A stretch of 60,000 nucleotides of DNA from Malacoraja senta (taxonomy: Eukaryota). The notes under the pieces were generated by a model that saw nothing but the letters and a program-made list of their open reading frames with translations, was not told the DNA's origin and did not search any database. A program made the position numbers and the translations under genes. Numbering within the stretch: the stretch's first letter is position 1; every line of letters starts with the position of its first letter. The stretch spans positions 13,146,001-13,206,000 of the forward strand of contig CM075991.1 of assembly GCA_038087875.1 (NCBI GenBank), written 5' to 3'. Shown here one piece after another: positions 9,462 to 46,404 of the stretch.

Positions 9462-10882
9462 GGAAACGCCCAGAAGCATGATGCTCATACAAAACAATCT
9501 GAACTCAAAAGCACGAACAACCCAACACGTACTAATCATGTCAAATCAATGGCTGCTAGGAATCAAGTTCAACACTGCTCGAGAACCGCTGAAAAAAATC
9601 CCGCCCTCACTCAAACAGTTTCTATGTTTCCCCAAGTTACGACTGCATTATTCCCAATGGAGTCAAATGCAGAAAAGGAAATTATTGTTGATGAATCAGC
9701 TCAAGAAAGACAATGTTTAGGAAACTTAAAACCTGAAAATTCAACACATTATGAATATATTCATAAATCAAGCAATCAAGAAAAGGAAAATAAATGTACA
9801 GTAGGTACAGCACAAACTGCTGGACAATCTACCAGTACAGTTTTAATTGATCAGTTTACACAACAGGTGAATAATACTCAAATCAGCAGATTAAAGGGGA
9901 CTGCTTCAGATAATCACTCGTGGGCCGTTGGTATCGACAATATAGCCAGGGTGGTCCCTGCTGTGTCCAGGCCATTGGGCAAGTCTGGAATGGCCCCCAC
10001 TCAGGCCAGGCCGGTGGGCAGGTCCAGAGCGGCGCCCACTCAGGCCAGGCCAGCGAGCAGCTCCAGAGTGGCCCCCGCTCAGGCCAGGCCGGTGGGCAGG
10101 TCCAGAGCGGCCCCCGCTCAGGCCAGGCCAGTGAGCAGCTCCAAAGTGGTCCCCGCTCAGGCCAGGCTAGTGGGCAGGTCCAGGGCGCCCCCTGCTGCAG
10201 CCAGGCCAGTGGGCAAGTGTGGAGCGGCCCCCGCTCAGGTTAGGCCAGTGGGCAGGTCTGGAGAGGCCCCCGCTCAGGACAGGTCACGGGTGCCCTCCGC
10301 TACGGCCAAGCCAGTGGGCAGGTCCAGGGCGGCCCGTGCGGTGGCACGGTCTGGCGCAGTTCCCAGTACACCGAAAGTCATGGTTAGAGCTAGACCATCG
10401 CCCCGTGCAGCCAAGCTTGTGAGCAGGCTTGGGGCAGCTCCATGTGCAGCCAAGTCTAGGAGAGCCCCTCATGCAGCCAAGCAGGTGAGCAGCTCCAGAG
10501 CATTCACCCGTGCAGCCAAATCTGCAGGTGGAATGACTGTTCCAAATGAGCATTCAAAAGCAGAGGTAGTAAAGAGCTGTGGGAAATTGAGCAAAACAGG
10601 ACAACAATGTGAAAGTGAAAAATCGAGGAAATCGCCATGTATTGCAAGCAGACCGAATGGATCCAATTCTATTTCAAGTAGACCACTGACAACATGGAAA
10701 CCGTTTACACGATCTGCTCAAAGATTGCATCCAACTTTGGTGTCTCCTACACAAAATATAAAGAGCAATAAAGATGCAGTACAAAACATAAGCAAATTGG
10801 CAGCATCAGTAATGAGCACAGCTAAGCAGAGAGATGATCAAAGTTCCATCACCAAGACATTGAAAGGAAAAGATGAAAGAAG
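9462..10882 (+). CDS. CKAP2L: CKAP2L large exon 4 (disordered basic region, KEN motif 9783-9791, 13-aa repeats)
   Basis: 1421-nt open frame, CTTTGTTTCAG| acceptor, AG|GTAAAT donor; DERR joins exon 5 KQLEEW. Confidence 0.85.
9950..10520 (+). repeat. 39-bp coding minisatellite (APAQARPVGRSRA-type units)
   Basis: Repeated GCCCCCGCTCAGGCCAGGCCRGTGRGCAGSTCCAGAG units that decay towards the 3' end. Confidence 0.9.
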
Positions 10883-12954
10883 GTAAATGTAAAGTTGTCT
10901 GAAATTGCATAAAATGATTTGACTTGCTTTTAATTCGAACTTTGTTGTTTGTCCTAAAAAAGTATTTTGCAATCTATTTGCCAGGGAATCTCCTGACTCT
11001 CCAGTTTTAAACTAAATGTTCAGCAACACAAGTAAATAGAATGCGAAAAAAAAGGTATATGATTTGCTTGCCTTCATTGGTCAGGCCATTGAATATTGGA
11101 GTCAAGAAAGCATGATGCATCTTTGTAGGGCTTCAATTTTTGTTATCTGTTTGTGTTCTGTTTTCATCGCATAGCTGTGCCAGCTCAGATTCTGCCTTGC
11201 TCTGAGAGACGATGCATATGAGCAGCATGAACGAATTATGTTTATAGAGTGCTCCCTCTTACAATTGAACTTGCGTTGCATTGTCAAAAACATAAATGTT
11301 GATGTTGAGCTCTGCTACCATGTAAATTTTGTGTGGATGTAATAAATCTCAACACTGAGAAACATGTCCAGTTGAATAGATGATGAGTTTGTAATTGACA
11401 GGTGTGGTAAAATATGATTAATGCGATTTGTTTGTGAAGGACATCTGTTGTGGGTTTAATCTTCAGGATTTATAGATTTTGTCGAGTAAATAATCAGGTT
11501 TACATCTCTGAAATAGGCACTCCCACAAGAAGACTAGGGTTATCTTACAATCCCCACAGAGGATCTTCTGGGACTTGTCTTACAGCTGGCACACTGCAGA
11601 CATTGCACCAATGTTGGAGAGGGAAAGTTTTAAGATGCTGGAATATGGCTGGGGAGTGAGAATATTGTTTTCTCATTGAGACCCTGCCTCAGGACTCTGA
11701 GTGGAGAGCGAAGTGTCAATAACGAGGGGGGTAAGATGGACCACTAGGCGACATATGGACTGAGGAGGGTTGAAGGATGACAAGGACAATACAGTTGGGA
11801 GACAGGCAGGTGGGTGATCGATGGAAGCAGGCAATAAAATGGATGAAGGGGAGGTTGAAGGTGGACTCTTGTTAAAGTCCCACCCTTGTCTCTGAAATTT
11901 AAATTTAGTTAATAATCTGGGTTAAAAAAAATTATGTTATTAAGTTATTATGGCTGTAATCATAAAAAGTCATCTTGTTCACTAACATGCTTTCCATTGG
12001 GAAGAAATTGGTGGTTATTATCTGATCCAGCCTAGATGGCTCCAGATCCACTGATATAGTGGATTCAACAATGCCCTTTGAAATAGTGGAATGCCTAGTC
12101 AGCTACTGAATTCATTTATGGATGGGCAATAAATGTTGCCAAGGTCTCAATAGTAATAATTCAAAAGGTGCCCTTGTACTTTATTTCAATCCCTTGATCT
12201 TTCAATGGTATATTGGTGCAAGTAACACCATTCTAGGCTTTTTAAAACAATTTGTTCAGAAACCTTATCATTGCCAGTTTTTACACTTGGGTCCACCTCT
12301 CCTGATATATTTTAATTTGGATAATACTATTGGTATACAGGTGAACAGCCTGCACTACTTGTTATTCCACCATACTTGGTGCTAACACCTTGCTTGTAGC
12401 TCCCTTCGATCACAATTACTTCTGCTTGTATCACGTGCACAAGCACCCATTTCCATTATTACCCTGAAATGAGCTTAATTTCCCTTAAGATGTTCCTCGG
12501 TTTGGCTGCAAGAGGCCAAGACAAGGTTTGCAGTTCCTCATTTGCCTCATTCCTCATCTGGTATAGTTCAATTACTAATTATGATTTTTACATCTTACCA
12601 GTGGTTCTTGTTCTGTGGGCATCTGTTTCACAAAATTGCTTTTTAAGTGGGACTCTGAAATGCCTCTGCAAATCCACATCAAACACACATGTATTTACTT
12701 TCATTATTCTGCTATTTCATTAAATAGATTTGAATAAATCTATTAATGATAAAGGAGACTCAAATCTCATTTATCTTAAAACTCATCTTTTCAGTTTCCT
12801 TTCCCTTACCATACTTGCCTTATTTATTTATTTTTCAGGGGAGTTTGTGACACAAGCAAGGTTTCCATCTATTTTCTTTTCTAAGTATTTCTCTAACTGA
12901 AAGAGGGCAATTAAAAACCATCCATATCATTGCGATGGGTCAAGGCCTATGGGA

Positions 12955-14630: not shown

Positions 14631-15562
14631 ATTGCAAACTATCTTTCCCTTTGTTCCCAGTGCACCATGGCTATTCAAAACGCATTTCAGTTGCTCACCA
14701 AGGCTACATTAGTCTTTCTCAAACTAATAAGCATAAAGGTATATGAACGCTACCACCTACAAGGCCAAATTGGACATAAATATATTGTCACCCTTGGGTC
14801 TGTTCAGTAACACTTAATTCTAGTTATTCAAGCAGGCGGTTACACATTCTTGAAAGACAATTATGGTTGGACAATAAATCTATTAAAATAAAACAAGAAC
14901 TGTATTAAATGCTATTCTCACAACTTGTGCTGATCCAATGCTTGAATGTGGGATTTCGGGTGGATGTAAGACTTCCGATTGCATTAGGTTAAAGAGCAGT
15001 GGAGTTATTCTCAATTCATCCACACAGCATGATTTTTTTTTTTAAGTGGACCACTTGCTTTTGTGGGATTGCTTTGCAGAAAATCATAAAATCGTAAGTG
15101 ATAGGAGCAGAATTAGGCCATTCAGCCCATCGTTTGCTATTCAATCATGGCTGATCTTTCTCCCCCTCCTAACCCCTTTCTGCCTTCTCCCCATAACCCC
15201 TGACACCCGTACTCACCAAAATAGTTGACATAGTTCTACTCTACAACAATGATTGCTGTTTAGCTTGTTACAACATTTTGAAAGTTGTTGTATGTAAAAG
15301 TACTTTATTAATAACACAACAAAATAATATGAATGGTAAAATGTATGGAATAGAAACACAGAATATAAAAGCATGGAAGTTGAAGCTTTGTGGGAGTGAG
15401 TGTGCACAGAGTTCACGTTGCTTCCTGTGCAATTGGTGCCATGATGATGCTGCTGTGATTCTCTTAATACTTCCAACATCATGGTTTCTTTTGAATTCTT
15501 CCCTGTTAAATCGAAACACGGTGGTTTTTATTTTCAACTGTACTATTCATATTTTGCCTCAG

Positions 15563-15761
15563 GAAACAACTTGAAGAGTGGTTAGCTTCTAAAGGGAAGA
15601 CCTACAAACGCCCTCCCATGCCAACCCCTTTGAAGAAAGTTTTCAAATCTGTAAAGAAGAATTTGGAGTGTTCTTTCTTGGAAGCACTGGAAGAAGAACA
15701 GAAGAGCCTGGCAGATCGGGTGCACCACATGTTGAATGACTGCATGAAGCTGCTAGAGAGG
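15563..15761 (+). CDS. CKAP2L: CKAP2L coding exon 5
   Basis: RKQLEEWLASKGKTYKRPPM, the hallmark of the CKAP2_C domain in CKAP2L; canonical AG/GT, phases 2/0. Confidence 0.95.
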
Positions 15762-15914
15762 GTATGGACGTTTTACCAGGATTGACAGCGAGATTAATGC
15801 TTCCCAAAAAAATTAATTGTCCCTGCTCCAGGATGAGTGCTGGAAGTGTTGTAGAGTATATTCAAATAGAGGTTTTGTTATGGGAAGCGCATCTTGGAAT
15901 CAATCAATCGATAA

Positions 15915-16700
15915 GAAGGTAGACACAAAATGCTGGAGTAACTCAGTGGGACAGGCAGCATCTCTGGAGAGAGGAATGGGCGACGTTTTGGGTCGAGACC
16001 CTTCTTCAGACTGATGTCAGGGGAGCGGGCAGGACAAAGATAGAATGTAGGCAGAGACAGTAAGACTAATGGGAGAACTGGGAAGGGGATGGAGAGAGAA
16101 AGTAAGGACTATCTGAAGTTAGAGAAGTCAATGTTCATACCGCTGGGGTGTAAGCTACCCAAGCTGTTCCTCCAATTTGCGCTGGGCCTCACTCTGACAA
16201 TGGAGGAGGCCCAGGACAGAAAGGTTTTTGGGAATGGGAGGGGGAGTTGAAGTGCTAGGCCACTGGGAGATCAGTTAGGTTTGCTGAGCCTGTGCTTGGT
16301 CTCCCTTCCACTCCCCCTCCCATTCCCAATCTGACCTTTCTGTCCTGGGCCTCTTCCATTGTCAGAGTGAGGCCCAGTGCAGATTGGAGGAACAGCACCT
16401 CGTATTTCACTTGGGTATTTTACACCCGCGGTATGAACATTGACTACTATAACTTCAGATAGCCCTTGCTTTCCCCCTCTCCATCCCCTTCCCAGTTCTC
16501 CCACTAGTCTTACTGTCCCGCCTACATTCTATCTTTGTCCTGCCCCCTCCCCTGACATCAGTCTGAAGAAGGGGAGGGGCCAGGCCAGGAAGAAAAAGAC
16601 CCAAAACATTGCCCATTCCTTCTCTCTAGAGGTGCTGCCTCACCCGCTGAGTTACTCCAGCATTTTGTGTCTACCTTTGATTTAAACCAGCATCTGCAGT
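15915..16700. mobile_element. Two Penelope-derived repeats in inverted orientation
   Basis: 15915-16260 is the approximate reverse complement of 16305-16680. Confidence 0.8.
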
Positions 16701-16863
16701 TCTTTCTTACACAGTCAATCGTTAAGGTAGGTACTAACTGCATGCAGTGGAATTATTTTCTTTCTTTTCCCAAATGGCAATCCTTATGGTATTTTCAAAT
16801 AGCTGCAAAGTAGTTATTGCTTCGTTGTGTTATATTTTTTAAAGTTTACATTGTTACCTTTAG

Positions 16864-17022
16864 GGTTCCTCGCCTGAACAAGTGTCTGAAGCATTGCGGA
16901 ATGTTCCTGGCGGTGAGAAGTTTGCCAAGTACTGGATTTGCCGAGCACATCTGCTAGAATTAACTGGTACGATGGAGGCCATCGTTGCTCTGTTTGAGCA
17001 GGCTGTTCACAGTGGTGCAGAG
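16864..17022 (+). CDS. CKAP2L: CKAP2L coding exon 6
   Basis: VPGGEKFAKYWICRAHLLE...LFEQAVHSGAE; 159 nt, phases 0/0. Confidence 0.95.
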
Positions 17023-17141
17023 GTAACTATATTTGTAACAACAAACTAAAATTGCTGATTTAAATGTTTTAAGTTTTGATCTTTACCTAAACATTCCTCT
17101 CTGGTGAGTTGCTTTACAATGAGAAACTAACTCTTTCACAG

Positions 17142-17214
17142 CCTGTTGAAGAGCTGCGGTCTGCACTTGTGGAAACCATCATGAGGAATGCAAACTCTCA
17201 CACATCCTGTACAG
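17142..17214 (+). CDS. CKAP2L: CKAP2L coding exon 7
   Basis: PVEELRSALVETIM; CACAG| acceptor, |GTAAAT donor, phases 0/1. Confidence 0.9.
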
Positions 17215-17728
17215 GTAAATCTGCTGGCATTAAAAAATGGAGTTTCCTTTAGATTTGTAAATTTAAAATGGTGAAAAATATATATTTGCATTTGTGTAAC
17301 TTCTTTGAGTGCTTTAGAACCAATGTTTTTATGTTGTATTGTCACTTTTCTTGACGGATATATGGTATCCAATTTGTGCTCACACCTAGGTTCCACAATC
17401 AATGTAATAATGGCTAGCTGATTTGCTTAATGTACATTGAGCCATAAATATCAGCCAAGATACCAAAGATGTCGCCCTGGAATCATCTTCAGCCATCTCC
17501 GTGGAGCATTAGTTCAATGTTCCGATAACCGGCATCTTTAGCATCAGTGGAACACTCTTGATTCGAATATTGTGCTCTGATCTTTGGAGGGAGGGTTGAA
17601 CCCACAATTTCTGTCCGAGCATATGAATAGCCATCTGTGCAATGGATGACGTTGACATAGAGATGCTGTAGTTATGAATGATCACTGACCATTTTTAAAT
17701 TTGCCCCGTGTTTTTTATATTATGATAG

Positions 17729-17876
17729 AAAAGGAAGATGTTAAAACTGAAGGTTTTGAAGAATCAGCTGTTGCCACGCCTCGTACAACATTAGTGGAGT
17801 CTCTGTTCAGCAAAATAGATGGGCATGGTTCATCCGTGATCAAATACAGAGTGACCGCAACACCCCAAGTGCTCAG
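17729..17876 (+). CDS. CKAP2L: CKAP2L coding exon 8
   Basis: VATPR...GSSVIKYRVTATP; phases 1/2, |GTAAGG donor. Confidence 0.85.
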
Positions 17877-18354
17877 GTAAGGTTTTATCATCAACGCCTT
17901 TCCCCCTTCTCCCGCCAAGAAATGATGGCCATTGTACTTGTCTATATTAATCCCTTTAACTCAAATTTTTCCCATAACCCATGCCTTGACAAATCGGATG
18001 ATTCAGATTTTGATAGCTTGATATTTTCTAAGTACTTCAGGTGCCTCTGTTGTGGTTCAATGTTCTTAAACAGATAAAAACACAAATAAAATCAGTGATC
18101 AAGCAGTACAATCTTTATTTCGCCATACAGAGTCGCTTGTTATTGGAAAAAGGTATATCAACATATTTGTTAGCCTTGTAAGAGCTTCCTGCTGACTTTG
18201 CAATTAATTATGAGAAAAGTAATAGCCTGTCTTTAATTTCAGCTGAATCCATTTTTGTACAGAATAAATCTTTTTAATTCAGGTGGCAACTGTACAGAAT
18301 TAAATCAAAGAGGTGACACATTTTCAACATTTCAAAATCGATCTTTCTTTGCAG

Positions 18355-18571
18355 AACAAATGAGCTTCAAAGCAAAATCCGATCTCATGGGAAGCAAGAT
18401 CTGAGGTTCCTCACCCCAGTCCGGCGCTCGGTTCGCATTGAGCATGTTTCTGCTTGGCACCCTGAGATGTTGAGAGAGCATGACTACTGTGTGGCCTCCC
18501 TAAATGAACTTTTAGCTGAGGATGAGGCTGAAACATTTGTTTACAGAGAAAACAAGGCTTTGCTGGAATAA
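18355..18571 (+). CDS. CKAP2L: CKAP2L last coding exon
   Basis: QDLRFLTPVRRSVRIE...PEMLREHDYCVASLNELL...FVYRENKAL then TAA; whole model 2409 nt = 802 aa. Confidence 0.95.
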
Positions 18572-18659
18572 CAGAAATTACACTGATATCCTTTAAATGC
18601 ATTTTACATACTATCCACATTAGCTATCAGCTTATTTGTATTGTTTTAAGAATGTATAT

Positions 18660-18665
18660 AATAAA
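18660..18665 (+). terminator. Probable CKAP2L polyadenylation signal
   Basis: AATAAA about 90 nt after the stop. Confidence 0.55.
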
Positions 18666-19074
18666 CTTGTTGTTTATTCGGTGCTTGGAACTGACTTTAA
18701 ATAACACTCAGACACGGGAGTAAAACTAAGCAGCTTCTTTATTCCAGGAAGCCACCTTGTGTCTCTCCTGCGCATGCGTACCATTGCGCAAGACATCACA
18801 TATGTTAATTCTATTACATACACCACATGCCTCCCCTTTAACTTGGAGGCAGGTAACACCATTTCTATTACATACACAGCAAACTATTGGATTCAGAAAC
18901 TTCAAAAGCATAAAAATAGTATATATTTAAATGTGCTAACGTCTCCTTGTCAACTACCTTCTTTCTTCACAAACACCAATATTCTGCTGCTTGTTTTTAC
19001 TTTGCTGTATCTCAAGGAATGAGGAAAGCAACACAACAAGGAATAACTAAGTTTGCCAATTATGAAGAACTTTG

Positions 19075-19157
19075 CTATTACAAATCTCAGTGTGGAGTAC
19101 AGAGGCAAATAAATAAATGATGGGTCTTTGTCTCAAACATTATGGAGGGCACTGTAG
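19075..19157 (-). mobile_element. Isolated Tc1 terminal inverted repeat
   Basis: Reverse complement reads TACAGTGCCCTCCATAATGTTTGAGACAAAGACCCATC..., matching the Tc1 end at 59333 onward. Confidence 0.75.
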
Positions 19158-19316
19158 TACATTGGCAGAAAAACATTTCAGTTAATTCTGTCCTCTTTTC
19201 CAAGAATGGAAAATGTCAATCTAAAGTATTGCTTTTAAGTTAAATGCTGGGTTTAGGAAAAGAGGACATGCAATTAAACAGATTTTTTTTTAAAGTAAAT
19301 ATAATGCAGATAGCGC

Positions 19317-19322
19317 TTTATT
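19317..19322 (-). terminator. Candidate poly(A) signal of the IL-1-family gene
   Basis: AATAAA on the minus strand about 90 nt after the stop at 19412. Confidence 0.45.
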
Positions 19323-19411
19323 TCACACAGTGATTAAACCTTGAATGAGGCAGAAAGTAGTTTGACCAACAGTTATATTCGGGGAGATTACTGGCCATCT
19401 TCCATCGTGGT

Positions 19412-19600
19412 TTAATCTATTTTTTGAATTTTAAAATATTTGGCTTCCATGTTATTTGTGTCATTGTCAACCGTCACCTTTTTATTTGCGTGGTGGATAA
19501 ACCAACCTGCTGCCAGACATGACTCAAAATATATTCGCTCATCGGACTGCACCACCTTTTTAAAAAGGAAAGCCTCATTGGTCGGCTTTCCTTCGTTGGG
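19412..19600 (-). CDS. IL-1-family cytokine, last exon (PNEGKPTNEAFLFKKVVQSDERIYFESCLAAGWFIHHANKKV...YFKIQKID)
   Basis: TTTTTCTTTATTCCAG| acceptor, phase 0; FLFxK...FES...GWFI is a degenerate IL-1 signature. Confidence 0.8.
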   Translation of the reverse strand, partial: PNEGKPTNEAFLFKKVVQSDERIYFESCLAAGWFIHHANKKVTVDNDTNNMEAKYFKIQKID

Positions 19601-19935
19601 CTGGAATAAAGAAAAACAAATTATGCACTTACTGTATTTGTAAAGCAAGCAGGCACACAATAGAAATACTGTAGCGGATCCCTTCCTGTCACAGGTGGTT
19701 CTGCTGCTTTGAGGATCAAAAGCATTCGGTTTTTGGCTCGAGACATATGCAGAGAACGTACAAACTCCATACAGACAGCATCCGCCTGAACCTGATTCTC
19801 TGCCGCGGAAAAGCAGCAACCCTACCATTGTGCCGCCCTAGGTCTTGGATGGTGCAGAGAAAGTGAGGGTTGGGGAAGATATGGTCTAATTCGCACTAGA
19901 CTGTTCAATAAGTGTACAACCAAAGAATTATTTAC

Positions 19936-20060
19936 CTGTAGTATGAGCTTTCGGCTGTTTCCCTGACCGATGCAGACCGATACCGATGAGTATTTCCCGG
20001 AATCTTTGCTAAAATGCAGAGATACAATGTCATCTCCATGTGGGGTGATTTTTACCTTGG
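19936..20060 (-). CDS. IL-1-family cytokine, penultimate exon (AKVKITPHGDDIVSLHFSKDSGKYSSVSVCIGQGNSRKLILQ)
   Basis: ATTTCCAG| acceptor, CAG|GTAAAT donor, phases 1/0 as in IL-1 genes; open frame with beta-strand pattern. Confidence 0.75.
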
Positions 20061-21568
20061 CTGGAAATCAGATAAGAAAGAAGTGAGACACAGCCATTCA
20101 TTTTCTGTTGCAATTGCTTGTTGGCAGCAGGGTTTGCACCTAATTGCTGCCCAGAAATACTTGCTACGGGTACAATAGCAGTAGAGTTGCTGCCTCACGG
20201 CACCAGAGACCTGGGTTCGATCTTGATCAAAGGTCCTGTCTGCACAGAATTTGTACATTCTCCCCGTGACTGAGTGGGTTTTCTCCAGGTGCTCCGGTTT
20301 CCACTCACACACCAAACACCTACAGATGTGTAGTTAATTGGCTTCTGTGTAATAGTGCTAGTGAACGGGGTGATTGCTAGTGCACACTGTATCTCTAAAA
20401 TCAAAAGTTAACTTTGCCCAGTTCAACACAGAATGAGAAATTACAGATTTTGATGCTAGTTTCTCATGGTTGCTGCATTCCAGTTTTTCTAATGTAACTT
20501 CTGACACAGGAGACATGAACAATCCCACAGTCATCTAATGACTGCAACATTAATCACCACCAGTGTTGATTTAACCCATTGGTGTTGATCACGATACTAT
20601 ATGATAGAACTTTATTTATCCAAGGAGGAAAATTGATCTGCCGTCATAAAAACACAAAATACATGAAACAGGAATTAAAGTGACAAGTGGAAAGGATTGG
20701 GGGATGTGCAAAGATTTGGGGGGGGGGGAGTCGGTCTACCCCATGACAGAAGAGGGAGGAGTTCTACAGTTTGATAGCCACAGAGAAGGATGTCCTGTAG
20801 CGTTCTGGAACCAGTTTGTTACTGAAAGTGCTCCTCAGGTTGATGGAGGGGGTGAGCTGTATTGTCCAGGATACTCCACAGTTTGAGGAGCATCCTCTCC
20901 TCCAAGACCACCTCCCATGAGTCCAACTCCGCCCCCAGGATGGAGCCAGCCTTTCTGATGAGTTATTAATCTTATTGGCGTCAGCAGCTTTTGCCCTGCT
21001 GCCCCAGCACACGGCAGCCACTTTCTCACCAGTATGTTGTAATGGCTTATTTCTATGCTGGAGCCAATTCTGACCCCACTGCTCTTTAGAATCATAGAAC
21101 CCTTCTGGGTAGAATGGGGCCATTCTGCTCATGGTGCCTATGCCAGCTTTTTCCAACCAGTTTAGAGACTGCAGGTTTGCAAGCTGGTGCCACTAGTGAG
21201 AACACAACAGCTCAAGAGTAGAACCTCCGAGTTCAGGACAGGCCCAATGACCCAAATGTCAAGTGGAATGAGCCGATGTAAAACCTATGGAGACTGAAGA
21301 GATATTCCTTCAATTGACCACCTACTCTCAGTTGGAATAATATTTAGTTAGCAAGTGCTAGAGACCGCCTGTATCCATTGAGAAAGCCTGGGGAAGAGCT
21401 GCAAATTTGACACTACAGGTAAAACTCATTAGTTTAATCAGGTACGCTAATTTATTTCAGATATTTTTGTTAAGAGTAGATCAGTTACCAGGTTCTGTGC
21501 ACAGATTTCTTTGCCAGCTGGCACGTAGGTTTTCTTGAGATGATTGGTGCCAACAAACTAGGGCTTAC

Positions 21569-21695
21569 CATTGCGGTTAGAATTCATGGACTTCAGTATC
21601 ACTTCGTTCGAAGATTCGTATATCCTCACGATTCTGTTATCTGAAGTGTAAATGTAATAGCTACGTTCATTGTCCATATTTCCGATGGTTTCTAC
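21569..21695 (-). CDS. IL-1-family cytokine, first beta-trefoil exon (VETIGNMDNERSYYIYTSDNRIVRIYESSNEVILKSMNSNRN)
   Basis: TTTTTTTTCACCCAG| acceptor, G|GTAAGC donor, phase-1 end joins the next exon; strong-Kozak ATG (AATATGG) at 21677. Confidence 0.7.
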
Positions 21696-21981
21696 CTGGG
21701 TGAAAAAAAAACATTTTAGGGTCATAGCCGAGAAGATGAAGTGACCATTTTATTTGCATTCACATAGTAATTCAAAGAAATCTAAAGCTGTAATTAAACT
21801 ACAATTGTAATGCTTATAATACTTATGACTGTAATGCTTATATTCCCTATATTTTAAATTCAAGTTACATAGTCTCCACTGTAATACAGTGCTGCCCCAA
21901 CTACGCTGAAGTCACGAGCTGTGTAATACGTGCGTTTGACTGTCCAAAGGCTGAGACCAAGCCACTGAAGTGCATATTGGT

Positions 21982-24312
21982 CTGGTGTACACCAACATTA
22001 AAGATGCATATAGAGCAGCCCCCCTCCCCCATATCGGCAACTCTGACCACCTAGTGGTTATGCTCACACCTGCATACAGACCCAGGGTGAAACAGGACAG
22101 GCCAACGGTCAAAGAAGTCAGAACATGGCCACAGGGAGCTACCGCAGCACTACAAGACTGTTTTGAAACCACACAGTGGGCTGTTTTCAGAGAGGCAGCA
22201 ACAGATGACAGTAGCATCAACCTCCAAGAATACAGAATCCGTCATCGGATACATCAATAAATGCACTGATGATGTAACGGTGGTAAAAACCGTCAGGAGG
22301 CGTGCCAATCAGAAACCTTGGCTAACTGGGGAAGTGTGTTCCCTACTGAGAATCCGGAATGCTGCATTCAAATCTGGGGACAACGCAGCATACAAACTGG
22401 CAAGGAGTAACCTATCCCGGGGGATCAGGGAAGCGAAGAGGCTGTATGGACAAAAACTTAATAGCCACTTCGCAAATGACAAAGACACACGTCGCTTGTG
22501 GCAGGGATTTCATACCATCACTGACTACAAGCCCCCACCCGCTGCGGATATGCCAAAACGACCCCTCTCTACCAGATGAACTGAACGAGTTCTACGCACG
22601 GTTTGAGGTTGAAAACACCACCCAGACACGTGCACTACTGCCATCTCCCAGTGACCAGTCGCTCAGGCTGTCCGCAGCCGGAGTTAAAAAGGCCTTTGCC
22701 AGCATCAACCCACGCAAAGCTGCAGGGCCGGACAACATTCCTGGATGCGTTTTAAGAGACTGCGCCGAGCAACTGAAAGATGTCTTCACAGACATTTTTA
22801 ACATCTCACTCAGCCAGGCAGTAGTGCCCAACTGTCTTAAGAGTGCCACCATCGTCCCTGTCCCGAAGAAACCAAACCCAGCCTGCCATAATGACTTTCG
22901 ACCAGTGGCTCTAACACCCATAGTAATGAAGTGTTTTGAGCGACTGGTTATGCAGCATATCAAAAATAGTCTACCTGCCGACCTAGACCCACTGCAGTTC
23001 GCCTACAGAGCCAACCGATCCACAGAGGACGCAGTCTCAACAACACTGAACCTCGTACTGTCACACCTTGATCGGAAAAATACTTATGCCAGGATCCTCT
23101 TCATAGACTTCAGCTCTGCTTTTAATACAATCATTCCGCAGCAGCTGGTGGAGAAGTTGGAGCTATTGGGGGTTGATGCTGGCACATGTAACTGGGTCCT
23201 GAACTTTCTATTGCAACGGCAGCAGACAGTCAGGGTGGGCAGTAGGACATCAAAAACCATAGCCGTGAGCACTGGCTCGCCCCAAGGCTGTGTCCTAAGC
23301 CCCCTACTGTTTAGTCTGCTAACACACGACTGTACTGCTAGACTCAACAACAACTTCATCAACAAGTTCGCTGATGACACAACAGTGGTGGGTCTCATCA
23401 GTGACAATGATGAGTCGGCGTACAGGATGGAGGTGGAGCTGCTCACAGGATGGTGCAAATCCCACAACCTCATTCTCAACGTGGGAAAGACTAAGGAGAT
23501 GGTGGTTGACTTCAGGATGGCGGGAAAACAACACCATACACCTCTGCACATCGATGGAGCTGATGTGGAAAGGGTCAACAGCGTGAAGTTCCTAGGACTC
23601 CACCTGTCAGATGACCTGACGTCCACGACCAACACCACAGCACTGGTCAAGAGAGCCCAGCAGCGACTACACCCTCTCCGAAGACTACGTAAAGCAGGTC
23701 TCTCCACTACACAACCACGAACTTTTTATAGGGGGACAATCGAGAGCACATTAACCTACGGCATCACTTCCTGGTTCGGGAGCTGCAAGGCGTACGAACG
23801 GCACCAACTAGACAGGATTGTGAAGACTGCCAGCAGGATTATTGGTTCTCCACTCCCTTTCCTGCTGGACATATACAGGAAGAGATGTATCAGCAGAGCC
23901 ATCTCCATCATCAAAGACCCCTACCACCCATCGCATCACATATTCTCCATCCTGCCATCTGGGAAGAGGTACAGGAGCATTAGGTGCAAAACCAGCAGGA
24001 TGCTCCTCAGCTTCTTCCTGCAGGTTATAAGACTGATAAACGGACTTTGCCCCCTGCCAAAGTATCGTGCACCAACCACCAACCTGGACACACTGCAGCA
24101 GAGCCACTGTCGTGCCGCTGCCGATCGGAACGCCTGTTGATGTTTAGTAGAGAGTAGAGTGTTCATTTGTTCATGATATATGTATTTTTTACTTCTATTT
24201 ATTTTTTACTGCACACTGAAATGGACACTGGTTGAGGAACGTTTTTTTGTTTCCTCTGGGTATGTGAATACTCAGGAAATGACAATAAAGATATACAATA
24301 CAATACAATACA
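21982..24312 (+). mobile_element. 5'-truncated Rex1/Babar-like LINE
   Basis: RT ORF 22359-24140 ([25 protein letters not shown]) with frameshifts upstream; (ATACA)n tail; TSD ATATTGGT at 21974-21981 and 24313-24320. Confidence 0.9.
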
Positions 24313-24729
24313 ATATTGGTACGGCTGTAATTAGCTCCGGAGCAGCAGCGATGTTATGAAACTTTTCAAAGAGCAGAGAAGGGAGAGGTGATTCCAGTGC
24401 TAAGGATGGTGCCAATGGTGGAACAGTTAAGAACGGAGGAAGACTGCGATGTGTAAGTACGATGGGCTGCAGGAGATGCTGCGGCAGGGTGGGTCTGATC
24501 ATGTGCAGGATCAAGTTAGATTGGATAGGGAGCCAGTTTGGGTAATACTAATAGAAAGTGATATTATATATGTTCCATCAATGGGAGCTAGCCAGGAGAG
24601 AATTAGAGTAGCCAGGAGAGAATTAGAGTAGCCAGGTTGAAAGCTAGATGGTATGAATCTCCCCAACTTTTACAGATGTTTAAGGAGATTCAGCATCTCA
24701 CCACTCCTTAGGCTCTTGGACAACCCTAC

Positions 24730-24758
24730 CTTAGCAAACATCCGTCGTGGACTTTGCG
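24730..24758 (-). CDS. Candidate 29-nt micro-exon of the IL-1-family gene (ATG-TTT-GCT-AAG)
   Basis: TCTTGCGTTATAG| acceptor, AAG|GTAGGG donor, phase 0 in frame with the exon at 21695; could be chance. Confidence 0.3.
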
Positions 24759-25582
24759 CTATAACGCAAGATTAAAGCCACAGCAAGTAAGAGTTTAATT
24801 GTTCTGATCCCAGAGCAAATAACAAACACTTGATTCTTTATACTCTTGAACGATGAGCTCAGCGGGACTATGAGTGAAATAATCACCATTTTCCGAGCTG
24901 CAAGCGGGGAGGTGTTTTTTTCAGGAAATGTTAGCAAAGTAGCGAGGGTCTCATTTAAACTCACATCCTCCACTTCAGCCTCTTTATCCACACAGGTGCT
25001 GACCGGAGTCTGAAGAAGGGTCTCCACCTGAAACGTCACCCATTCATTCCCTCCAGAGATGCTGCCTGTCCCGCTGAGTTACGCCAGCATTTTTGCCTAT
25101 CTTCGGTCCTGACCACTCCTCCCTGCAAAAGCTCCCGAGTTCGGCCACTCTCCCAACCCTCGGACACTCGCCCCTCCCCCAGTTCCGACCGGACACCCAC
25201 GCACTTCCCCATTCCGTCGTGTCAGTGAAAGCGAGCGGACAGGACAAAGATCGCCAATTCTCAGATCAGGAATCATGTTTCAGTCTGAAGATGAGCCCGA
25301 CCCGAAAAGTCACCCATCCACGTTCTCCAGAGTCGCTGCCTGACCCCTCCAACTGTGTCGTTATTTTAATCATGCCTCAGGTCGTGGACCCGAGACAGGT
25401 GCCGGGGGTGGAGCGCCTACTGTTTCTCCTTGTGCAAGCGCTACCTCGGTCCTGGCTGGTGACATCTTGCATCTCCTTTCCCTGACAGTATTATAGGGTT
25501 ACCGGTTACGGTTAGGTACTATAGCGCCGTTTCACTTCATTCCCAAACATCTTAAGGACAATTATAACCAATACTAGAGAAC

Positions 25583-27442
25583 TCTCTTCTTCTTCTTCTT
25601 GTAGGATTCCGGCAGTGTAGACGCTGCTAAGCGTATTACTGCCCTCCACAGGTCAAAGTTTGAACTAAATTCTTACATACAGTCCTGTAACTTGCAGGAA
25701 TTGAAGAACAGCCCTGGATATCAGTTGATGTTTCTCATTGTGTCCAAACAAAGATAAAACAGAAAAAGCCTCAACTCCAAGTCCTGTCAGTCTAACAAAC
25801 AATACTTTTCTTTCTACCCTATACTTTTTACATTCTAGGAAAACATGCTTAACTGTCTCATTACTCCCACATTCACACAAGCCAGAAACATGTTTCCCTA
25901 CAATGCACAAATAGTAATTTAACCCAGTGTCCCAACCTCAATCTACACAGTTTAACTGAGTCCCTACGGGACAGAGATGTACAGAAACATATTTTCCTAA
26001 CTTCAGATTGTATAGAAAAGTAGTGTCTACCCCTGACTTCCATTTCCCATCCTCTCTGCCATTCTTTTGTTAAGCCCTCTTTAATTATTTCTCTCAGTTC
26101 CACTCTCCCCAATGATACATGGATATCTATTTCTCTTCTTAAACTCTCCTTTGCTATGAGGTCCACCTGCTCATTCCCCCTCACCCCAGCATGCCCGGGA
26201 ACCCAGCAAAAAGTGATGTTACACGCAAACCCAATTCTAGAAAACACACTCAAGATTTCATTTAGAATGTCAGGACGAGCTTTAGATTTCCCTACTCTTA
26301 ATGTTTCAAGAGCAGCTGCAGAATCAGAACAGATAATGACTTCTCTAAAACTGGCTTCCTCAATCCACCATAGAGCCCATTGAATTGCCATTAATTCAGT
26401 CGTGAGAACAGAACTTCCATCAGAAATGCGCCGGCCAATCTTCAACCCAAGCTGCTCCACATACACTCCAAACCCAGCTCTCCCACTAACTGGATCTTTA
26501 GATCCATCTGTAAAAACAATCAAAGTACTCTCACTGATTGAATTAAGATATTCCACTATTCTTGGAGTCACCTCGCGCTTATCTTTTTCCTGAAGAAAAG
26601 CAAGCTCAATAAACAGTTCAGGAAGAACCCAATAGGGCACAGGTAGCCTTATTGTATGCTCTATAATACCCCCTTGTTCCAAACCCAGCTTCCTAGCCCA
26701 CTGATTTATAATGACAAAAAATGTGTTATATTTGTTACCATCATCAACCTCTTGCAACAAACACCTTGCTGGGAAGGTATCATTACACCCACAAAGTTTA
26801 GCCCAGTAATGTAACCCTAGCTTAATGCGCCTTAACCATAAGGGCATTTCTCCCATTTCAACAATCAGGGCAGGGACTGGGGAAGTCCTGAAGGCTCCAC
26901 AGCAAAGCCTCAAAGCTTTTGCCTGCAACACATCTAGCCTAGCCAGAACAGTTTTAGACGCAGACCCATACACAAAACACCCATAGTCAACAGAAGATCT
27001 GATCATGGCCTGATAAATTAGCATTGTCTCCCTGTTGGCCCCCCACTCACACCCAACCAGACTTCTCATAACATTCAGAACTTTTTCACACTTCAACACA
27101 ATTTTACCTACATGCCCAGCCCAAGTCATACGCTCTTCAAACCAAACACCCAAAAACTTAAAAACCTTTACCTTCTCCAATAGAGACCCATACATATACA
27201 GCCCTAACTTAGGTAACTTTCTTTTAAAACCAAATACCATATATTTAGTCTTAGAGGCAGAGATTTTAAAGCCCCATGTGTCCCCCCATTCCTCTACAGA
27301 CACTAACACTCTTTGAATCTGTTTTAAAACAAACTCTACATTACAACCTCTTTTCCAGATGGCCCCGTCATCTGCAAACAAAGACAGACCAAATCCTCTC
27401 TCTAATTTACAAAATATGTCATTTATCATGATATTAAATAAA
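25583..27442 (-). mobile_element. 5'-truncated I/Nimb-clade LINE with RNase H
   Basis: ORF 25873-27429: LFADD, RNase H motifs FTDGS/TELMAI/SDS/WVPGH.G..GNE, C-terminal CCHC; (GAA)n tail; TSD ACTAGAGA[A/T]CTCTCTT at 25573 and 27443. Confidence 0.85.
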
Positions 27443-29363
27443 ACTAGAGATCTCTCTTTGAATTAAACCATTTAAAAAGCCGTGTTCTTGTACTAATCGC
27501 CACCCAATGACTGTCGCAGATAAATAGCAGCGAGTAGATGTGGCGCTGATTCTCTCTCAGCATCACCTGGTTGAATAGCCTTTCGGGCCAAGAGAACAAA
27601 ACGCCTCGGGCCAGTGCCAAATGAGGAACCCTACTGCAGCAGGAAAATCTTTCACCACACACGCTTCCAGCCTGGTCTATTTTTGTTTTCGCTTCACAGC
27701 ATCTGCAAAGTGTTCCTTTTGGACTATTGTGGAGGTTTTTAATCTCATAACCACCCACCCCCCCCCCTCCCAAACTAATTGTTTGCATCATCAGTGGTGC
27801 AGAAGTGGGAATGGCACTTCACATTCCTTGCTGTTAATATTACTAATGATCTGTCATGGAGCAACCATATTGATGCAACAGCTATGAACGCACACCAATT
27901 TATCTATTTTCTGGAGAGAATGAAGACATTTGGCATGTTTCCAGTGTATAGTATATCTGATCTGTTGGGATGGCATGTAAAACAAAGCTTTTCACTGTAC
28001 CTCGAAACGTGACAATAATAAACCTAAAGCTGATCCAACCTGATGCAAGAAAAGCCATGTGCCAGACAACATCCTACTGTCCCACTGAAAAAGTGTGCTC
28101 CTCAGCTAGCTGAGCCTCCAAACAAACCATTTCAGTACAGTTGGGAAATTGCCCTGGAATATCCTATTCTCTAAAAGCAGGAAAAATCCAATCCACCTAA
28201 TTACTATTCAGTCAGGCTATTGTCAATCATCATCAAAGTGATGAAAGCTGCAGTGTTATCAAGTGAAACTCACCAATAACTTATTCCCCATCACCCAATT
28301 TGGGTTCAACTCCAGACATCATCACAAACGTTGTCCAACCAAAGACTAAAGGGCTGAATTGCAGAGGTAAGGTGAGAACGACTGCCCTTTAATTCAAGGC
28401 TTGCTGGAGTTCGGAGTCGGTCACCAACCAGGTCAGCTCCCGATGTTACCATCCACAGGGCCCACGCCCGAAGTCTCACGTGTGTGTGTGAGCGGTCACC
28501 AAGAAATTGTGTCTCCCCGTGTTTTGATAGCGATTTCCGCCATTGCTCTACAAAACACAATCTGCATACTCTGGCAGCAGCTCTCAAATCCACAATCTCA
28601 GCCATCAAGAGAGCTAATGACAATAGGTGTCTGCTATTTCTTTCTTGGTTCCACACCATCCTGACCCGGAAGTAGATTGCTTTTCCTTCATTGCATCTAA
28701 GACTTGGAACTCTCTGCCAAACAGCCCTTTGAGGAACCTTCACCTGAAGGACTGCATGAAGATGGCCTTTACAGAGCAGTTAAGGGATAGGTAAGAAAAC
28801 TCCTCACCCTGTCATCTCTGCAAACAACCCCCTCACCCACTCCCTCTGTGCACCCAGTTTGAGAGATCTACTCAGCTACTTATATTGTACTGCTGTATGA
28901 ACAACTTTTAACCCTGAACAATCTTTGGAACCCTCTCATTCACAACTGAACGGTACTTCCATCAGCTAGAGTGCATTCCTGACCTCCCATCTTCCTGATC
29001 GGAGACCTAAATGTCGTCCCCTTTATCCTTTATCTGTACACCCTGCATTGCTTGTTTTGTCTTGTTTTCGTGGCTTGTTTTCTTTGACTGCATAGCACAC
29101 AAACTAAATGTTTTCACTGTACTTCAGTGTACATGACAATAATAAACTAAACTAAAGATCCTAGAATCCATTCTCAGATGATAAGTAGGTAAATAACAGC
29201 AAATATTCTTGCAATTGGAGCTAATATAAATAAATTCATTTCTTTTTTGCTAAATGAGTAGCAAATTCATCCAGTATATCTAACCCTTTGCTCTATATAT
29301 TGTACTTGAGTTTGACTTGATTGCATTTACTTTTGAGTTCTCTGATCTGTTTAGATAGCATGC

Positions 29364-29855
29364 AATATGTACCTATCGGCACATTGACAATAAACCTAAT
29401 CCTAAAACAACATCAACAATCAAGAAGAAAAGTGCATTAATAATTTAATCTTACGTTCTAATCTTACGAACGATGATAAACAGATATTGCAAGGTCAAAC
29501 CCCAAATTAAAATATATAGATGGAGAACTGTCCCCAGAAGTATGGATCAATAACATTATCCTAGTTTAGTGCAGCATTCCGCTTTGTACAAAGACATACT
29601 CACTTAGCTTTCGAGGGTTTATTGAGCTTCGCCTCACTGATGCTCACCAGCTAATGCCTGGTACGTTCCTGGTTTCTCCCTCCTTTATATAGAAATAAAG
29701 GTGAGGCTTTCAACTACCAGTTGTCTGACTTCCTGTTGTGTAATAATCAGATTTCATGAAAGTGATATGGCACCATATCAGGCATAACATAAGGTTCATA
29801 AGCATTTAACACATAGTTGTGTGAAACCAATGTTGTGCAATGTCAATGGCAAGTC
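29364..29855. repeat. Direct duplication copy 1 (copy 2 at 31304-31784)
   Basis: Near-identical ~480-bp blocks offset by 1940 bp. Confidence 0.95.
29598..29745 (-). promoter_or_regulatory. Putative IL-1-family promoter and non-coding exon 1 (second copy 31538-31685)
   Basis: Minus strand: C/EBP-like ATTACACAA, ETS CAGGAAGT, TATATAAA (29691-29684), ATG-free ~55-nt exon, donor AA|GTGAGT at 29603. Confidence 0.6.
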
Positions 29856-31315
29856 TTTTTTTAATGTTTTTATTTTTTATTTTATTTTTTAGAAGTAAGT
29901 ACAATAATGTGTTACCAAAGTACCTAATACTTATTGACATATTACATTTCATATACAACTTCTTATTTTTAATTTAATAATAAAGCAAAAATAAGAAATG
30001 AAAGATTACAAAAGGAAAGATTGAGATGAAGTGTTGCGTGAGATAGCAAAATAGCCCTAGAAAAAAAATGAGGAGAAAAAAAGAAGAGAATAAAGAAAAA
30101 AGAAACAAAAGAGAAGAGGAAAGGAGATTGAAAGCGATAAGTCTATTTCATAATCCTGTTTCTGAACCATTATATTTCTATGATTGTGTTGCACCATATG
30201 CTTGTAGAAAGTCGATAAAGGGAGACCATATCAATAAGGTCTACCTTACCTACTAGAAGGAGTCGTATTTCTTCAAGATATGCCGTTTCTGACATATTTG
30301 AAATCCACATTTTCAGTGTTGGTGTTGGCGAATCTTTCCAAAATTTAAGTATGATTTTTTTTGCCATTATTAAACTGTAATTAAGTAAGGATTTTTGATA
30401 CGTATTTAGCTTATTCCCGTCTTCCAGTGATCCAAAGATAATCATTTCTGTATTCGATTCCAGTCTTCTATTAATTAAATTTGTAAAAATTTCATTCCAG
30501 AATTTATGAAGTTTTATACAGGAGACAAAAGAGTGTTATAGTGGCATTCTCAGCTAAGCATTTATCACATATTGGTGAGATATTTGGATAAAATTTATAC
30601 AATCTAGCTTTCGAGTAATATAGTCTATGTAAAATTTTAAGTTGGATTAAATTATGTTTTACATTAATCGAACATTTATGTATATATATCAGGTATTTTT
30701 CCCATGCTTCTTTCGCAATTTTTATCTGTAATTCTTGTTCCCAATCTACTATAATTGCTTCTGTCGATGGAGGTTCTATATTTTAAATGATATTATATGT
30801 ATGATATTAAATTGCTTGAATCTGCTTTAATATTCATCGCTTCATCTAGTGAATCTAAAGTTATATATTGATATCCTTGTATGCGTTTTTTCAAATAATC
30901 TCTAATTTGAAGGTATTTAAAGTATTGATTATTTTTCAAGTTGTATTTTAATTGTAGTTGTTGAAATTATTTTAAAAAATCCCATTTCATACAAATCTCC
31001 AAAGCTTTTAATTCCTAATCTTTCCCAAAAGGTATACGCTTCATCAATAAGAGATGGCTTAAATGAGGGGTTATTTACTATTGGAGTTAAAAGCGATAAA
31101 TTTCTTACTTTCAAAGTTAGTTTTATTTGTTTCCAAATTCGAATTGTGATGTGAATAATTGGGTTCTTCTTATATATTGTATTGTTTAATTTTATTGGGG
31201 AGAAGAGGATCGCTCCTATATTAAAAGGAGAACAATCCTCTTTCTCCATTCTTATCCATTCTACCTGTTGGGCAGAGCTGTCCCACCAATTAATTATGTT
31301 CTTAATATGTACTGC
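29856..31315 (-). mobile_element. 5'-truncated, decayed L1 (ORF2 C-terminus, 3' UTR, poly-A)
   Basis: Frameshifted ORFs homologous to the C-terminus of ORF2 33800-37483; T-run at 29856. Confidence 0.9.
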
Positions 31316-31784
31316 CTATCGGCACATTGACAATAAACCTAATCCTAAACCATCAACAAACAAGAAGAAAAGTGCATTAATAATTTAATCTTACGTTCTA
31401 ATCTTACGAACGATGATAAACAGATATTGCAAGGTCAAACCCAAAATTAAAATATATAGATGGAGAACTGTCCCCAGAAGTATGGATCAATAACATTATC
31501 CTAGTTTAGTGCAGCATTCCGCTTTGTACAAAGACATACTCACTTAGTTTTCGAGGGTTTATTGAGCTTCGCCTCACTGATGCTCACCAGCTAATGCCTG
31601 GTACGTTCCTGGTTTCTCCCTCCTTTATATAGAAATAAAGGTGAGGCTTTCAACTACCAGTTGTCTGACTTCCTGTTGTGTAATAATCAGATTTCATGAA
31701 AGTGATATGGCACCTTATCAGACATAACATTAGGTTCATAAGCATTTAACACATAGTTGTGTGAAACCAATGTCAAGTCAAGTC
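31304..31784. repeat. Direct duplication copy 2
   Basis: Matches 29364-29855. Confidence 0.95.
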
Positions 31785-33370: not shown

Positions 33371-33405
<35 letters not shown>

Positions 33406-38831: not shown

Positions 38832-39418
38832 TCTCAGCATTTTGTAAAACTATATAAGCCGTATATATTTTTCATACCAACCTCGAGTGTATATTATCTC
38901 TTAACTATTTTAAATTGGTTTTAATATTGTTAAAAATGAGCTGTTCGCTGGAAGGGTTAACGGGAGTCTGGCTCCTGGAGTTATGCCAGGTACCCGGTCT
39001 CCCCCTCCCTCCACTCTCGAGCTGCATAGCACTTGCTGTTATCTGCTAAACAGAGCAGGCTGCACATTTTTTATCTATTACAATTGCTATTTCTATATTA
39101 GTATTGTTAATTATTAATTATTATTAGTTCTCAGTTTTTTCAGTTTTTTATAAACAATATAAGCCATGTGATGTTTTTCACTCTCAGCCCAGCAGTTCGT
39201 CCCGTGTTATCAGGTTTTCCTCGTTTGAGCACGTAGTGTCCTTGAATTACATAGCACAATGTTCCAGCGAAGATAATAATGTCTAGCCACGTCTCACTAA
39301 GAATCTGTTGCTTGAAGTCAAATAAAAAATAAAAAATCAGTGTTCAGTTAATTCACTTTCCTTGTGATACTCATGTTGGGAGAATAAGCAAGTTCGTTTG
39401 TTCATGTCGTCTTGGTTT

Positions 39419-45308: not shown

Positions 45309-45426
45309 GCCGTGCGTGACGTGCGCACCCACTGCCGTGCGTGACGTGCGCACCCACTGCCGTGCGTGACGTGCGCACCCACTGCCGTGCGTGACGTGCG
45401 CACCCACTGCCGTGCGTGACGTGCGC
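45309..45426. repeat. Perfect 25-bp tandem repeat (GCCGTGCGTGACGTGCGCACCCACT, about 4.7 copies) in the PURB promoter
   Basis: Four exact units plus an 18-nt partial unit. Confidence 0.95.
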
Positions 45427-45522
45427 GGCGCCCCCCCCCCCCCCAGCCGTGGGCTGGGGAGATCTCGCGAGGAGCGGCTCCGCTCGGACGGACGGTCGGA
45501 GAGGGAAGGCTGGTGGCTCAAG

Positions 45523-46404
45523 ATGGCGGAGGGCGACAGCGGGAGCGAGCGAGGCGGCGGTGGTGGAGGCGGCGGCGGCGGGGGAGGAGGAGGCGGCGGC
45601 GGCGGGGGAGGCGGCCTCTTGCTGCAGCAACAGCAGCAGGAGACTCAGGAGCTGGCCTCCAAGCGGGTGGACATCCAGAACAAGCGCTTCTACCTGGACG
45701 TGAAGCAGAACGCCAAGGGCCGCTTCATCAAGATCGCCGAGGTGGGCGCGGGAGGCAACAAGAGCCGGCTCACGCTCTCCATGGCGGTGGCGGCCGAGTT
45801 CCGCGACTACCTGGGCGACTTCATCGAGCACTACGCGCAGCTCGGCCCGTCGGACACGGACTCGGCCGCCGGCCTGGGCTCAGACGAGCCGCGGCGAGCG
45901 CTCAAGAGCGAGTTCCTGGTGAGGGAGAACCGCAAGTACTACATGGACCTGAAGGAGAACCAGCGCGGCCGCTTCCTGCGCATCCGCCAGACCTTAAATC
46001 GAGGCCCCGGCTTAGGGGGGACGCAAGGCCAGACCATCGCCCTGCCGGCGCAAGGCCTGATCGAGTTCAGGGACGCGCTGGCCAAGCTGATCGACGACTA
46101 CGGCGTGGACGACGAGCCGTGCGGCCAGGCCGAGCTGCCCGAGGGCACGTCCATCACTGTGGACAGCAAGCGCTTCTTCTTCGATGTGGGCTCCAACAAG
46201 TACGGCGTGTTCATGCGGGTGAGCGAGGTGAAGCCGTCGTACAGAAACTCCATCACCATCCCGTACAAAGCCTGGTCCAAGTTTGGCAGCGCCTTCAGTA
46301 AGTACGCCGAGGAGATGAAGGAGATCCAGGACAAGCATCGGGACAAGATGCTCTTCGAGAGGCGAGCCGACGAATCGGATGGGGAAGATGTGGACGACGA
46401 TTGA
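45523..46404 (+). CDS. PURB: Transcriptional activator protein Pur-beta, intronless, 293 aa
   Basis: [13 protein letters not shown] start, three PUR repeats ([64 protein letters not shown]), acidic [10 protein letters not shown] end; Kozak AAGATGG. Confidence 0.93.

Follow-up and report, generated by a model that had tools for sequence, protein, structure and literature searches.

A divergent and unlabelled skate gene at the IL-1beta locus, probably a pro-domain-less member of the interleukin-1 superfamily

A 60,000-nucleotide (nt) stretch of the genome of the skate Malacoraja senta (GenBank assembly GCA_038087875.1, contig CM075991.1, positions 13,146,001 to 13,206,000, forward strand; hereafter the window) contains a short three-exon gene on its minus strand. 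This gene is probably an unlabelled, fast-evolving member of the interleukin-1 (IL-1) superfamily that lacks a pro-domain and lies at the skate IL-1beta locus. Comparisons at the sequence level make it likely that the encoded protein is an IL-1 superfamily trefoil. A longer chain of steps can be built on this, in which the gene would encode a leaderless ligand of near-mature length, 140 amino acids (aa), acting as a receptor antagonist. We give that whole chain a probability of roughly one in three.

The three-exon gene and its orthologues

Three coding exons and a candidate polyadenylation signal were read from the window:

19412..19600, minus strand: final coding exon; 62 codons plus stop; contains the FES motif (Pfam IL1 E 0.018, short of the cut-off)
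19936..20060, minus strand: middle trefoil exon, phase 1 to phase 0, 125 nt (IL-1beta counterpart 134 nt)
21569..21695, minus strand: first trefoil exon, 127 nt, phase 0 to phase 1, with a conserved start ATG at 21677-21675
19317..19322, minus strand: AATAAA, candidate polyadenylation signal, about 90 nt past the stop

The exons (127, 125 and 189 nt) have AG acceptors and GT donors, and when joined they give 146 codons and a stop, with the remaining two reading frames closed. A 140-aa product begins at the ATG at 21677, whose context has A at -3 and G at +4. The original prediction, made from the letters of the window, had described this arrangement: three in-frame minus-strand exons at these positions, junctions of phases 1 then 0, a strong-Kozak ATG, and a phase-0 intron, in place of the phase-1 intron of IL-1beta, ahead of the first trefoil exon. 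All of it was borne out.

A protein search with exon 3 retrieved P0001, an unnamed Logan protein of 140 aa. P0001 clusters with two other proteins, P0003 (also 140 aa) and P0002 (167 aa), the contigs of all three being 1586 nt or shorter. Since these proteins extend over the intron positions, the simplest view is that their contigs are spliced transcripts of a relative. A second search returned P0004, a 140-aa "uncharacterized protein" of Rhinoraja longicauda (LOC144610339; XP_078285085.1, XP_078285086.1) that carries no IL-1 label in RefSeq. On protein comparison, LOC144610339 is the probable orthologue of the window gene. The orthologues are 70-76% identical, the window protein being 76% identical to P0001 and 70% to P0004. 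P0001 is supported by 4 contigs, P0003 by 1 contig and P0004 by 2 RefSeq accessions. Three of the four orthologues (P0001, P0003 and P0004) are exactly 140 aa long and begin at the Met encoded at 21677-21675, an IL-1Ra-type start; P0002 is the exception.

Database proteins span both junctions of the window gene at the predicted sites. When the divergence was simulated neutrally with substitutions alone, the frame stayed intact at 76% and 70% identity in 106 and 67 runs out of 1000; once indels were allowed, at an assumed rate of 1 per 15 events, it did so in 8 and 1 of 1000. Since the junctions are spanned and the frame rarely survives neutral simulation, we judge from these sequences that the three-exon gene is real, intact and beyond chance.

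The gene is evolving fast. In the Rhinoraja comparison its protein is 70% identical, versus 90.5% for the IL-1beta trefoil exons, an amino-acid divergence about three times that of IL-1beta. A hidden Markov model (HMM) search of 1.84 billion representatives at E <= 0.001 returned only P0004 and P0005 and no shark or ray orthologue, a result that does not show absence from those groups. P0005, a 1326-aa tandem-repeat sequence, was rejected as a spurious match. The known range of the gene is so far narrow, namely skates. Searches of full-text literature found no description of such a gene and no mention of LOC144610339, a provisional result in that subscription fish-immunology journals lay mostly outside their coverage.

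Superfamily membership

The assignment to the IL-1 superfamily is supported by a profile that owes nothing to the gene itself. It was built from 15 IL-1beta and 5 IL-18-like chondrichthyan trefoils, with no member of the window gene's family. Against it the window protein scored 18.9 bits and the Rhinoraja orthologue P0004 26.4 bits, and the highest of the shuffled controls reached 12.4 bits (1000 shuffles, 932 scored). With hhalign the family aligned to IL-1beta at E 1.4e-4 (probability 53%) and to the IL-18-likes at 1.2e-5 (81%); the control, IL-1beta against the IL-18-likes, gave 1.2e-8. Exon 3 scored 54 against the last exon of the same genome's IL-1beta, a value that none of 500 shuffles reached.

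Gene architecture provides a second line of evidence. In a global alignment with the trimmed IL-1beta of the same genome, introns fall at columns 36 (phase 1) and 83 (phase 0) in both genes, and PMC13736523 describes trefoil intron phasing as conserved across the superfamily. The [F/L]ES motif of strand 9 is present in the window protein and its orthologues. The three lineages all retain the FES motif, the F-x-F-K-K preceding it and both intron positions. In the ESM Atlas, both orthologue queries had IL-18/PF00340 as their top three clusters (0.92-0.94, sharing 178-187 of 256 features); IL-33 and other beta-trefoils came next, interrupted by one bacterial set with the name UpxY. The independent profile and the intron positions thus support the earlier proposal of a divergent IL-1 superfamily gene in a chondrichthyan. 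Its view of the signature as unusual survives in part. The Pro of FES..PGW, whose loss had been singled out, is present in none of 14 chondrichthyan IL-1beta proteins, and its absence is therefore ordinary; the change of ST to HH is peculiar to the window gene's family among the 20 database proteins listed. At the A-X-D motif the window protein has I-Y-T and IL-1beta V-R-D.

Several results weigh against this assignment. The Asp of A-X-D is Thr in the window protein. Pfam IL1 (PF00340) scored 13.8-15.9 bits against a 25-bit cut-off, and was nevertheless the top family for exon 3 and for the three orthologues scanned. The Atlas recognition values, 2225 and 2242, lie below 2300, where a high score is weak evidence. 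A PDB sequence search at E up to 10 found no IL-1 chain, its weak matches being mostly Ig domains, and neither exon 1 nor exon 2 on its own was significantly similar to the corresponding IL-1beta exon. AlphaFold did not reach a confident fold, with a predicted local distance difference test score (pLDDT) of 35 alone and 42 with an IL-1-rich alignment. In Foldseek the single-sequence model found no match. The model made with the IL-1 alignment gave matches that were nearly all IL-1 family chains, led by IL-1Ra (22% identity) and then an IL-36Ra loop-swap variant, at a template-modelling (TM) score of 0.49 and a root-mean-square deviation of about 9; this is a poor model built with IL-1 sequences, and the match is partly circular. 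A wide VIA search ranked generic barrels first and IL-1Ra at Z 5.0. In the Pfam and Foldseek comparisons proposed with the original prediction IL-1 ranks first, at scores under the Pfam cut-off and with a model of pLDDT 42. A 12-stranded beta-trefoil is the presumed fold of the protein.

These doubts also bear on what the protein might do. An IL-1 descendant that binds no IL-1 receptor, such as an intracellular regulator, a decoy for the cytokine-binding proteins of pathogens or a protein of mucus or skin, or else a protein without an IL-1 fold, would account for the branch length of 4.28 that the family has in our tree, for the lost ST, for the lack of a confident fold and for the weak clustering of conserved positions (best window p 0.2, worst window p 0.04). 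The retention of both motifs and both introns across the three lineages argues against such a role, which we consider improbable.

Locus and parentage

The gene has a canonical relative close by. A PF00340 scan of the genome gave five matches: two in IL-1beta, two in an IL-18-like pair on C12, and a fifth that carries stops and was discarded as junk. The complete IL-1beta, with six coding segments including the pro-domain, lies on the plus strand at G000:C15:13136266-13139887, which is 6-10 kb left of the window and about 25 kb from the window gene. Its last exon is 97% and its last three exons 96% identical to those of Amblyraja radiata. Two neighbours within the window define the locus:

15564..18562, plus strand: 3' exons of CKAP2L, with three CKAP2_C matches; last coding exon 18368-18562
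45370..46404, plus strand: PUR-family gene, PURB by synteny, a single open reading frame (ORF; Pfam PurA E 2.9e-104)

The order is therefore IL-1beta, CKAP2L, window gene, PURB, with the window gene tail to tail with CKAP2L and about 850 nt from its last coding exon. CKAP2L and PURB are named as IL-1beta neighbours in PMC7144542 and PMC5861070. Because a complete IL-1beta stands on the other side of CKAP2L, the window gene is an extra paralogue, distinct from the occupant of the IL-1beta position. The claim that it occupies the ancestral locus is not supported. As the original prediction had said, no canonical IL-1beta lies between CKAP2L and PURB; the wider search that it had called for found one just left of the window. 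On the plus strand at 9450-10886, a long low-complexity exon of Ala/Pro/Arg-rich tandem repeats, with no Pfam family, is probably the middle of CKAP2L.

It is useful to contrast the window gene with the known systems. It shares with chondrichthyan IL-1beta (among P0006-P0022) the locus, the two trefoil intron positions with their phases, and an FES..GW signature without Pro. Their proteins are 20-29% identical where the alignment covers at least 96 residues (11 of 14 comparisons). Unlike IL-1beta, the window gene has no pro-domain of about 150 residues, has phase 0 rather than phase 1 before the first trefoil exon, has shorter loops, and sits on the opposite side of CKAP2L and on the opposite strand. 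With IL-18 and the skate IL-18-like pair (P0012, P0017, P0023-P0025) it shares a short or absent pro-piece and the trefoil intron phases, and these are its best language-model neighbours; it differs in not being on C12, in an identity of 15-28% over partial alignments, and in its phase-0 intron, where the IL-18 gene matching P0012 has phase 1 before the first trefoil exon. The intracellular IL-1Ra, IL-36Ra and IL-38 of amniotes likewise have no leader and no long pro-domain and start near the mature N-terminus, a likeness that consists of architecture and of Foldseek hits to a low-confidence model, the alignments having held no amniote sequences. Finally, IL-1anc/nIL-1F (PDZ-IL-1) is, according to PMC13736523 and PMC7144542, also a divergent cartilaginous-fish IL-1 trefoil with an FES motif and no signal peptide. 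In contrast to it, the 140-167-aa orthologues have no PDZ domain in Pfam and the window gene lies at the IL-1beta locus.

Which gene was the parent is harder to say. The tree foreseen in the original prediction, with IL-1beta and IL-18, was built (P0019, a partial sequence, was left out of it and of two alignments, and the near-copies P0003, P0002 and P0023 were left out of the tree) but did not resolve the question. It is a long-branch star in which the window gene's family carries a long-branch warning, and a further point against our reading is that the sequence itself does not favour IL-1beta above IL-18 as the parent gene. An IL-18-like duplicate that was translocated to this locus, or an old, independent superfamily branch, acting on the IL-18 receptor, would agree with the Atlas clusters, with the slightly better hhalign result and with the second IL-18-like pair as the nearest other rows of the tree by path; two IL-18-like genes do exist on C12 of this genome. 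Yet the window gene lies 25 kb from IL-1beta and on a different contig from the IL-18 genes, and it scores 13.1 bits with an IL-1beta profile (shuffle maximum 8.7) versus 10.6 with an IL-18 profile (maximum 11.9). The tree's own warning that long branches meet also tells against an IL-18 origin, which has in our view only a small chance of being right. Position thus favours IL-1beta while the Atlas and hhalign lean to IL-18, and the window gene likely arose as a local duplicate of IL-1beta.

The two IL-18-like genes are in facing orientation at G000:C12:25502767-25572756, with about 46 kb between them. The second, with 179-181 aa and a very short N-terminal piece, matches "interleukin-18-like" in Amblyraja and "uncharacterized" in Rhinoraja.

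A second copy of the window gene, with identical exons, lies at window-equivalent positions 68217-70501. It falls in a block of about 39 kb (window-equivalent 64182-102945) that repeats 15374-33375 and 45359-63981 at 99.6-99.7%, starts right after a run of 200 N and holds the window gene, PURB and the 3' exons only of CKAP2L. This near-identical block after an N gap is probably an uncollapsed haplotype or false duplication, and we rejected the copy as a second true paralogue, judging it probably an assembly duplicate. A long interspersed nuclear element (LINE)-type element at 33800-40414 (minus strand), with an open 1273-codon endonuclease-reverse transcriptase ORF and, upstream of it, an open 331-codon coiled-coil ORF, is missing from the second block. 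It is flanked by direct and inverted duplications (32712-33375, 37570-38831, 40607-42510), which suggests a recent or polymorphic insertion, or a misassembly.

The 5' end and possible function

The region upstream of the trefoil exons contains four further elements:

24965..25021, minus strand: upstream exon, 57 nt, open in frame, phase 0, GTGAGT donor; 5' boundary uncertain
25011..25103, no strand assigned: copy of an abundant short interspersed repeat, one end of which makes up the upstream exon's 5' part (67 blastn matches over 230 kb, counting itself and its copy in the duplicate block)
25001..25500, no strand assigned: CpG-rich stretch, putative promoter (GC 0.56, CpG observed/expected 0.74, 28 CpG; 3-20 CpG per 500-nt bin elsewhere in 18001-40500)
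25201..25212, minus strand: speculative first coding exon of four codons, with a good context at its ATG and a weak donor (score 0.94)

The original prediction had found no upstream exon and so missed the one ending at 24965. Residues 3-21 of P0002 match, at 15 of 19 positions, an in-frame stretch of 19 codons that lies 3.3 kb upstream and ends on the GTGAGT donor, so that there is a fourth exon. Its donor scores 7.5, versus 8.9 and 9.8 for the coding donors; at its 5' end it may have an AG acceptor before 25021 or 25027, or be a first exon. If it is read through without splicing, an in-frame stop lies upstream and no ATG follows that stop. The two initial residues of P0002 are not encoded by the repeat in 40 copies examined, which hints at one more upstream exon. 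The four-codon candidate at 25201..25212 is the sole match among 403 donors at least as strong, which is about the chance level.

The repeat and its surroundings have features of their own. On the plus strand, 25011-25103 reads CTGAAGA...hairpin...GAAAC, which resembles the core of a minimal hammerhead ribozyme; a single fold did not form that core, and an Rfam scan of 18000-27000, repeat included, had no match. Short out-of-frame upstream ATG frames at 25212-25043 (minus strand), just 5' of the upstream exon, could damp translation if transcribed. A reverse-transcriptase remnant (22350-24140, plus strand) lies in the intron that separates the upstream exon from the first trefoil exon, and another with RNase H (25873-27462, minus strand) lies just beyond the CpG-rich stretch.

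The upstream exon is probably 5' untranslated region, and may instead add a short acidic extension of about 27-31 residues. We think it probable, with some reserve, that the main product is the 140-aa form; that it carries the extension is possible and rather doubtful. An extension need not be inert. As in IL-18, IL-36 and IL-37, it could be an acidic pro-piece trimmed by a caspase or other protease. P0002, with its 27 extra in-frame residues, counts here against our reading. Trimming would also agree with the open phase-0 exon that matches P0002, the six codons preceding Met that are identical in the window gene and P0002, the acidic end of the stretch, which resembles a caspase site, and the in-frame ATG at 25212 that a weak donor could join. 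Against a trimmed pro-piece stand the three proteins that all begin at the internal Met, the in-frame stop and lack of a later ATG in the unspliced exon, the repeat origin of its 5' part and a donor at 25200 no better than chance; the first residue of P0002 may also be a gene-caller start at a non-ATG codon. We hold processing of this kind to be unlikely. On present sequence neither form would have an IL-1beta-type pro-domain: a pro-domain profile found 4 exons at the real IL-1beta and had no match below E 2.5 in the window. The window protein has no hydrophobic leader. The original prediction of a leaderless protein, with no IL-1beta-type pro-domain exons between CKAP2L and PURB, is supported.

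The 140-aa reading suggests the following scheme. A local duplication of IL-1beta would have lost the pro-domain exons and kept only the three trefoil exons, and a new upstream exon, partly repeat-derived and within the CpG-rich stretch, would supply the 5' end. Translation would start at the Met inside the first trefoil exon and give a protein of about mature length that needs no caspase cut. This Met lies 8 residues before the position aligned with A-X-D, and active IL-1 proteins usually begin nine residues before that motif according to PMC6470667; the protein would thus be made at about mature length, and would presumably be independent of cleavage. It would stay in the cytosol until released through membrane damage or pores. 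IL-1 family members without a leader are cytosolic and exit by non-classical routes. Outside the cell it would bind an IL-1-family receptor, and its shortened loops would fail to recruit the accessory chain.

The loops are the reason for proposing an antagonist. The window protein is shorter than IL-1beta in three places (5, 8 and 3 columns), and the 5-column deletion falls in the putative beta4/5 loop. PMC6596353 has the beta4/5 and beta11/12 loops decide IL-1RAcP recruitment, and with it agonist versus antagonist. Because the beta4/5 region is shortened, an antagonist is the role that we find most likely. It must be counted against this that the 8- and 3-column shortenings lie elsewhere, so that a short beta4/5 loop is not specific. 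Given an IL-1 trefoil and a 140-aa product, the antagonist has about an even chance. The same gene and fold could instead yield an agonist alarmin, synthesized at active length, kept in barrier cells and set free at cell death to signal through a receptor of the IL-1 family, like IL-1alpha, IL-33 and trimmed IL-36. The absence of leader and pro-domain, the start near the mature position, an isoelectric point of 8.8-9.4 (versus 7.2 for mature IL-1beta) and a rate of evolution suited to a pathogen-facing signal would all agree with this, and IL-1 proteins made in active form are allowed for in PMC13736523. The counterarguments, that a constitutively active agonist would lack a second safety step and that loops are shortened at the inferred co-receptor face, are weak, and we regard an alarmin as the less likely yet serious alternative to an antagonist.

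The literature consulted gives the cartilaginous fish repertoire as IL-1beta, IL-18 and IL-1anc/nIL-1F; of these sources, PMC5861070 reports only IL-1beta and IL-18 in all vertebrates, cartilaginous fish included. In the same literature the further IL-1beta-locus duplicates (IL-1alpha, IL-36) are treated as mammalian. Our analysis raises the possibility, which we hold tentatively and at less than even odds, that the IL-1beta locus of cartilaginous fish encodes a second ligand, which would be an IL-1 receptor antagonist without a pro-domain. It could be an independent invention, in which pro exons were dropped and a repeat-derived first exon recruited separately from amniote IL-1Ra, or the survivor of a duplication that predates the split of cartilaginous and bony fish. 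More broadly, there may be IL-1 members under the Pfam cut-off that are still unlabelled in vertebrate annotations. Two questions become testable: whether cartilaginous fish possess an IL-1Ra-like brake, and by what route a pro-domain is lost and replaced. Overall, if the reading is true, the IL-1beta locus would have given rise to a short type of IL-1 on the opposite side of the jawed-vertebrate tree as well, whether convergently or through deep ancestry.

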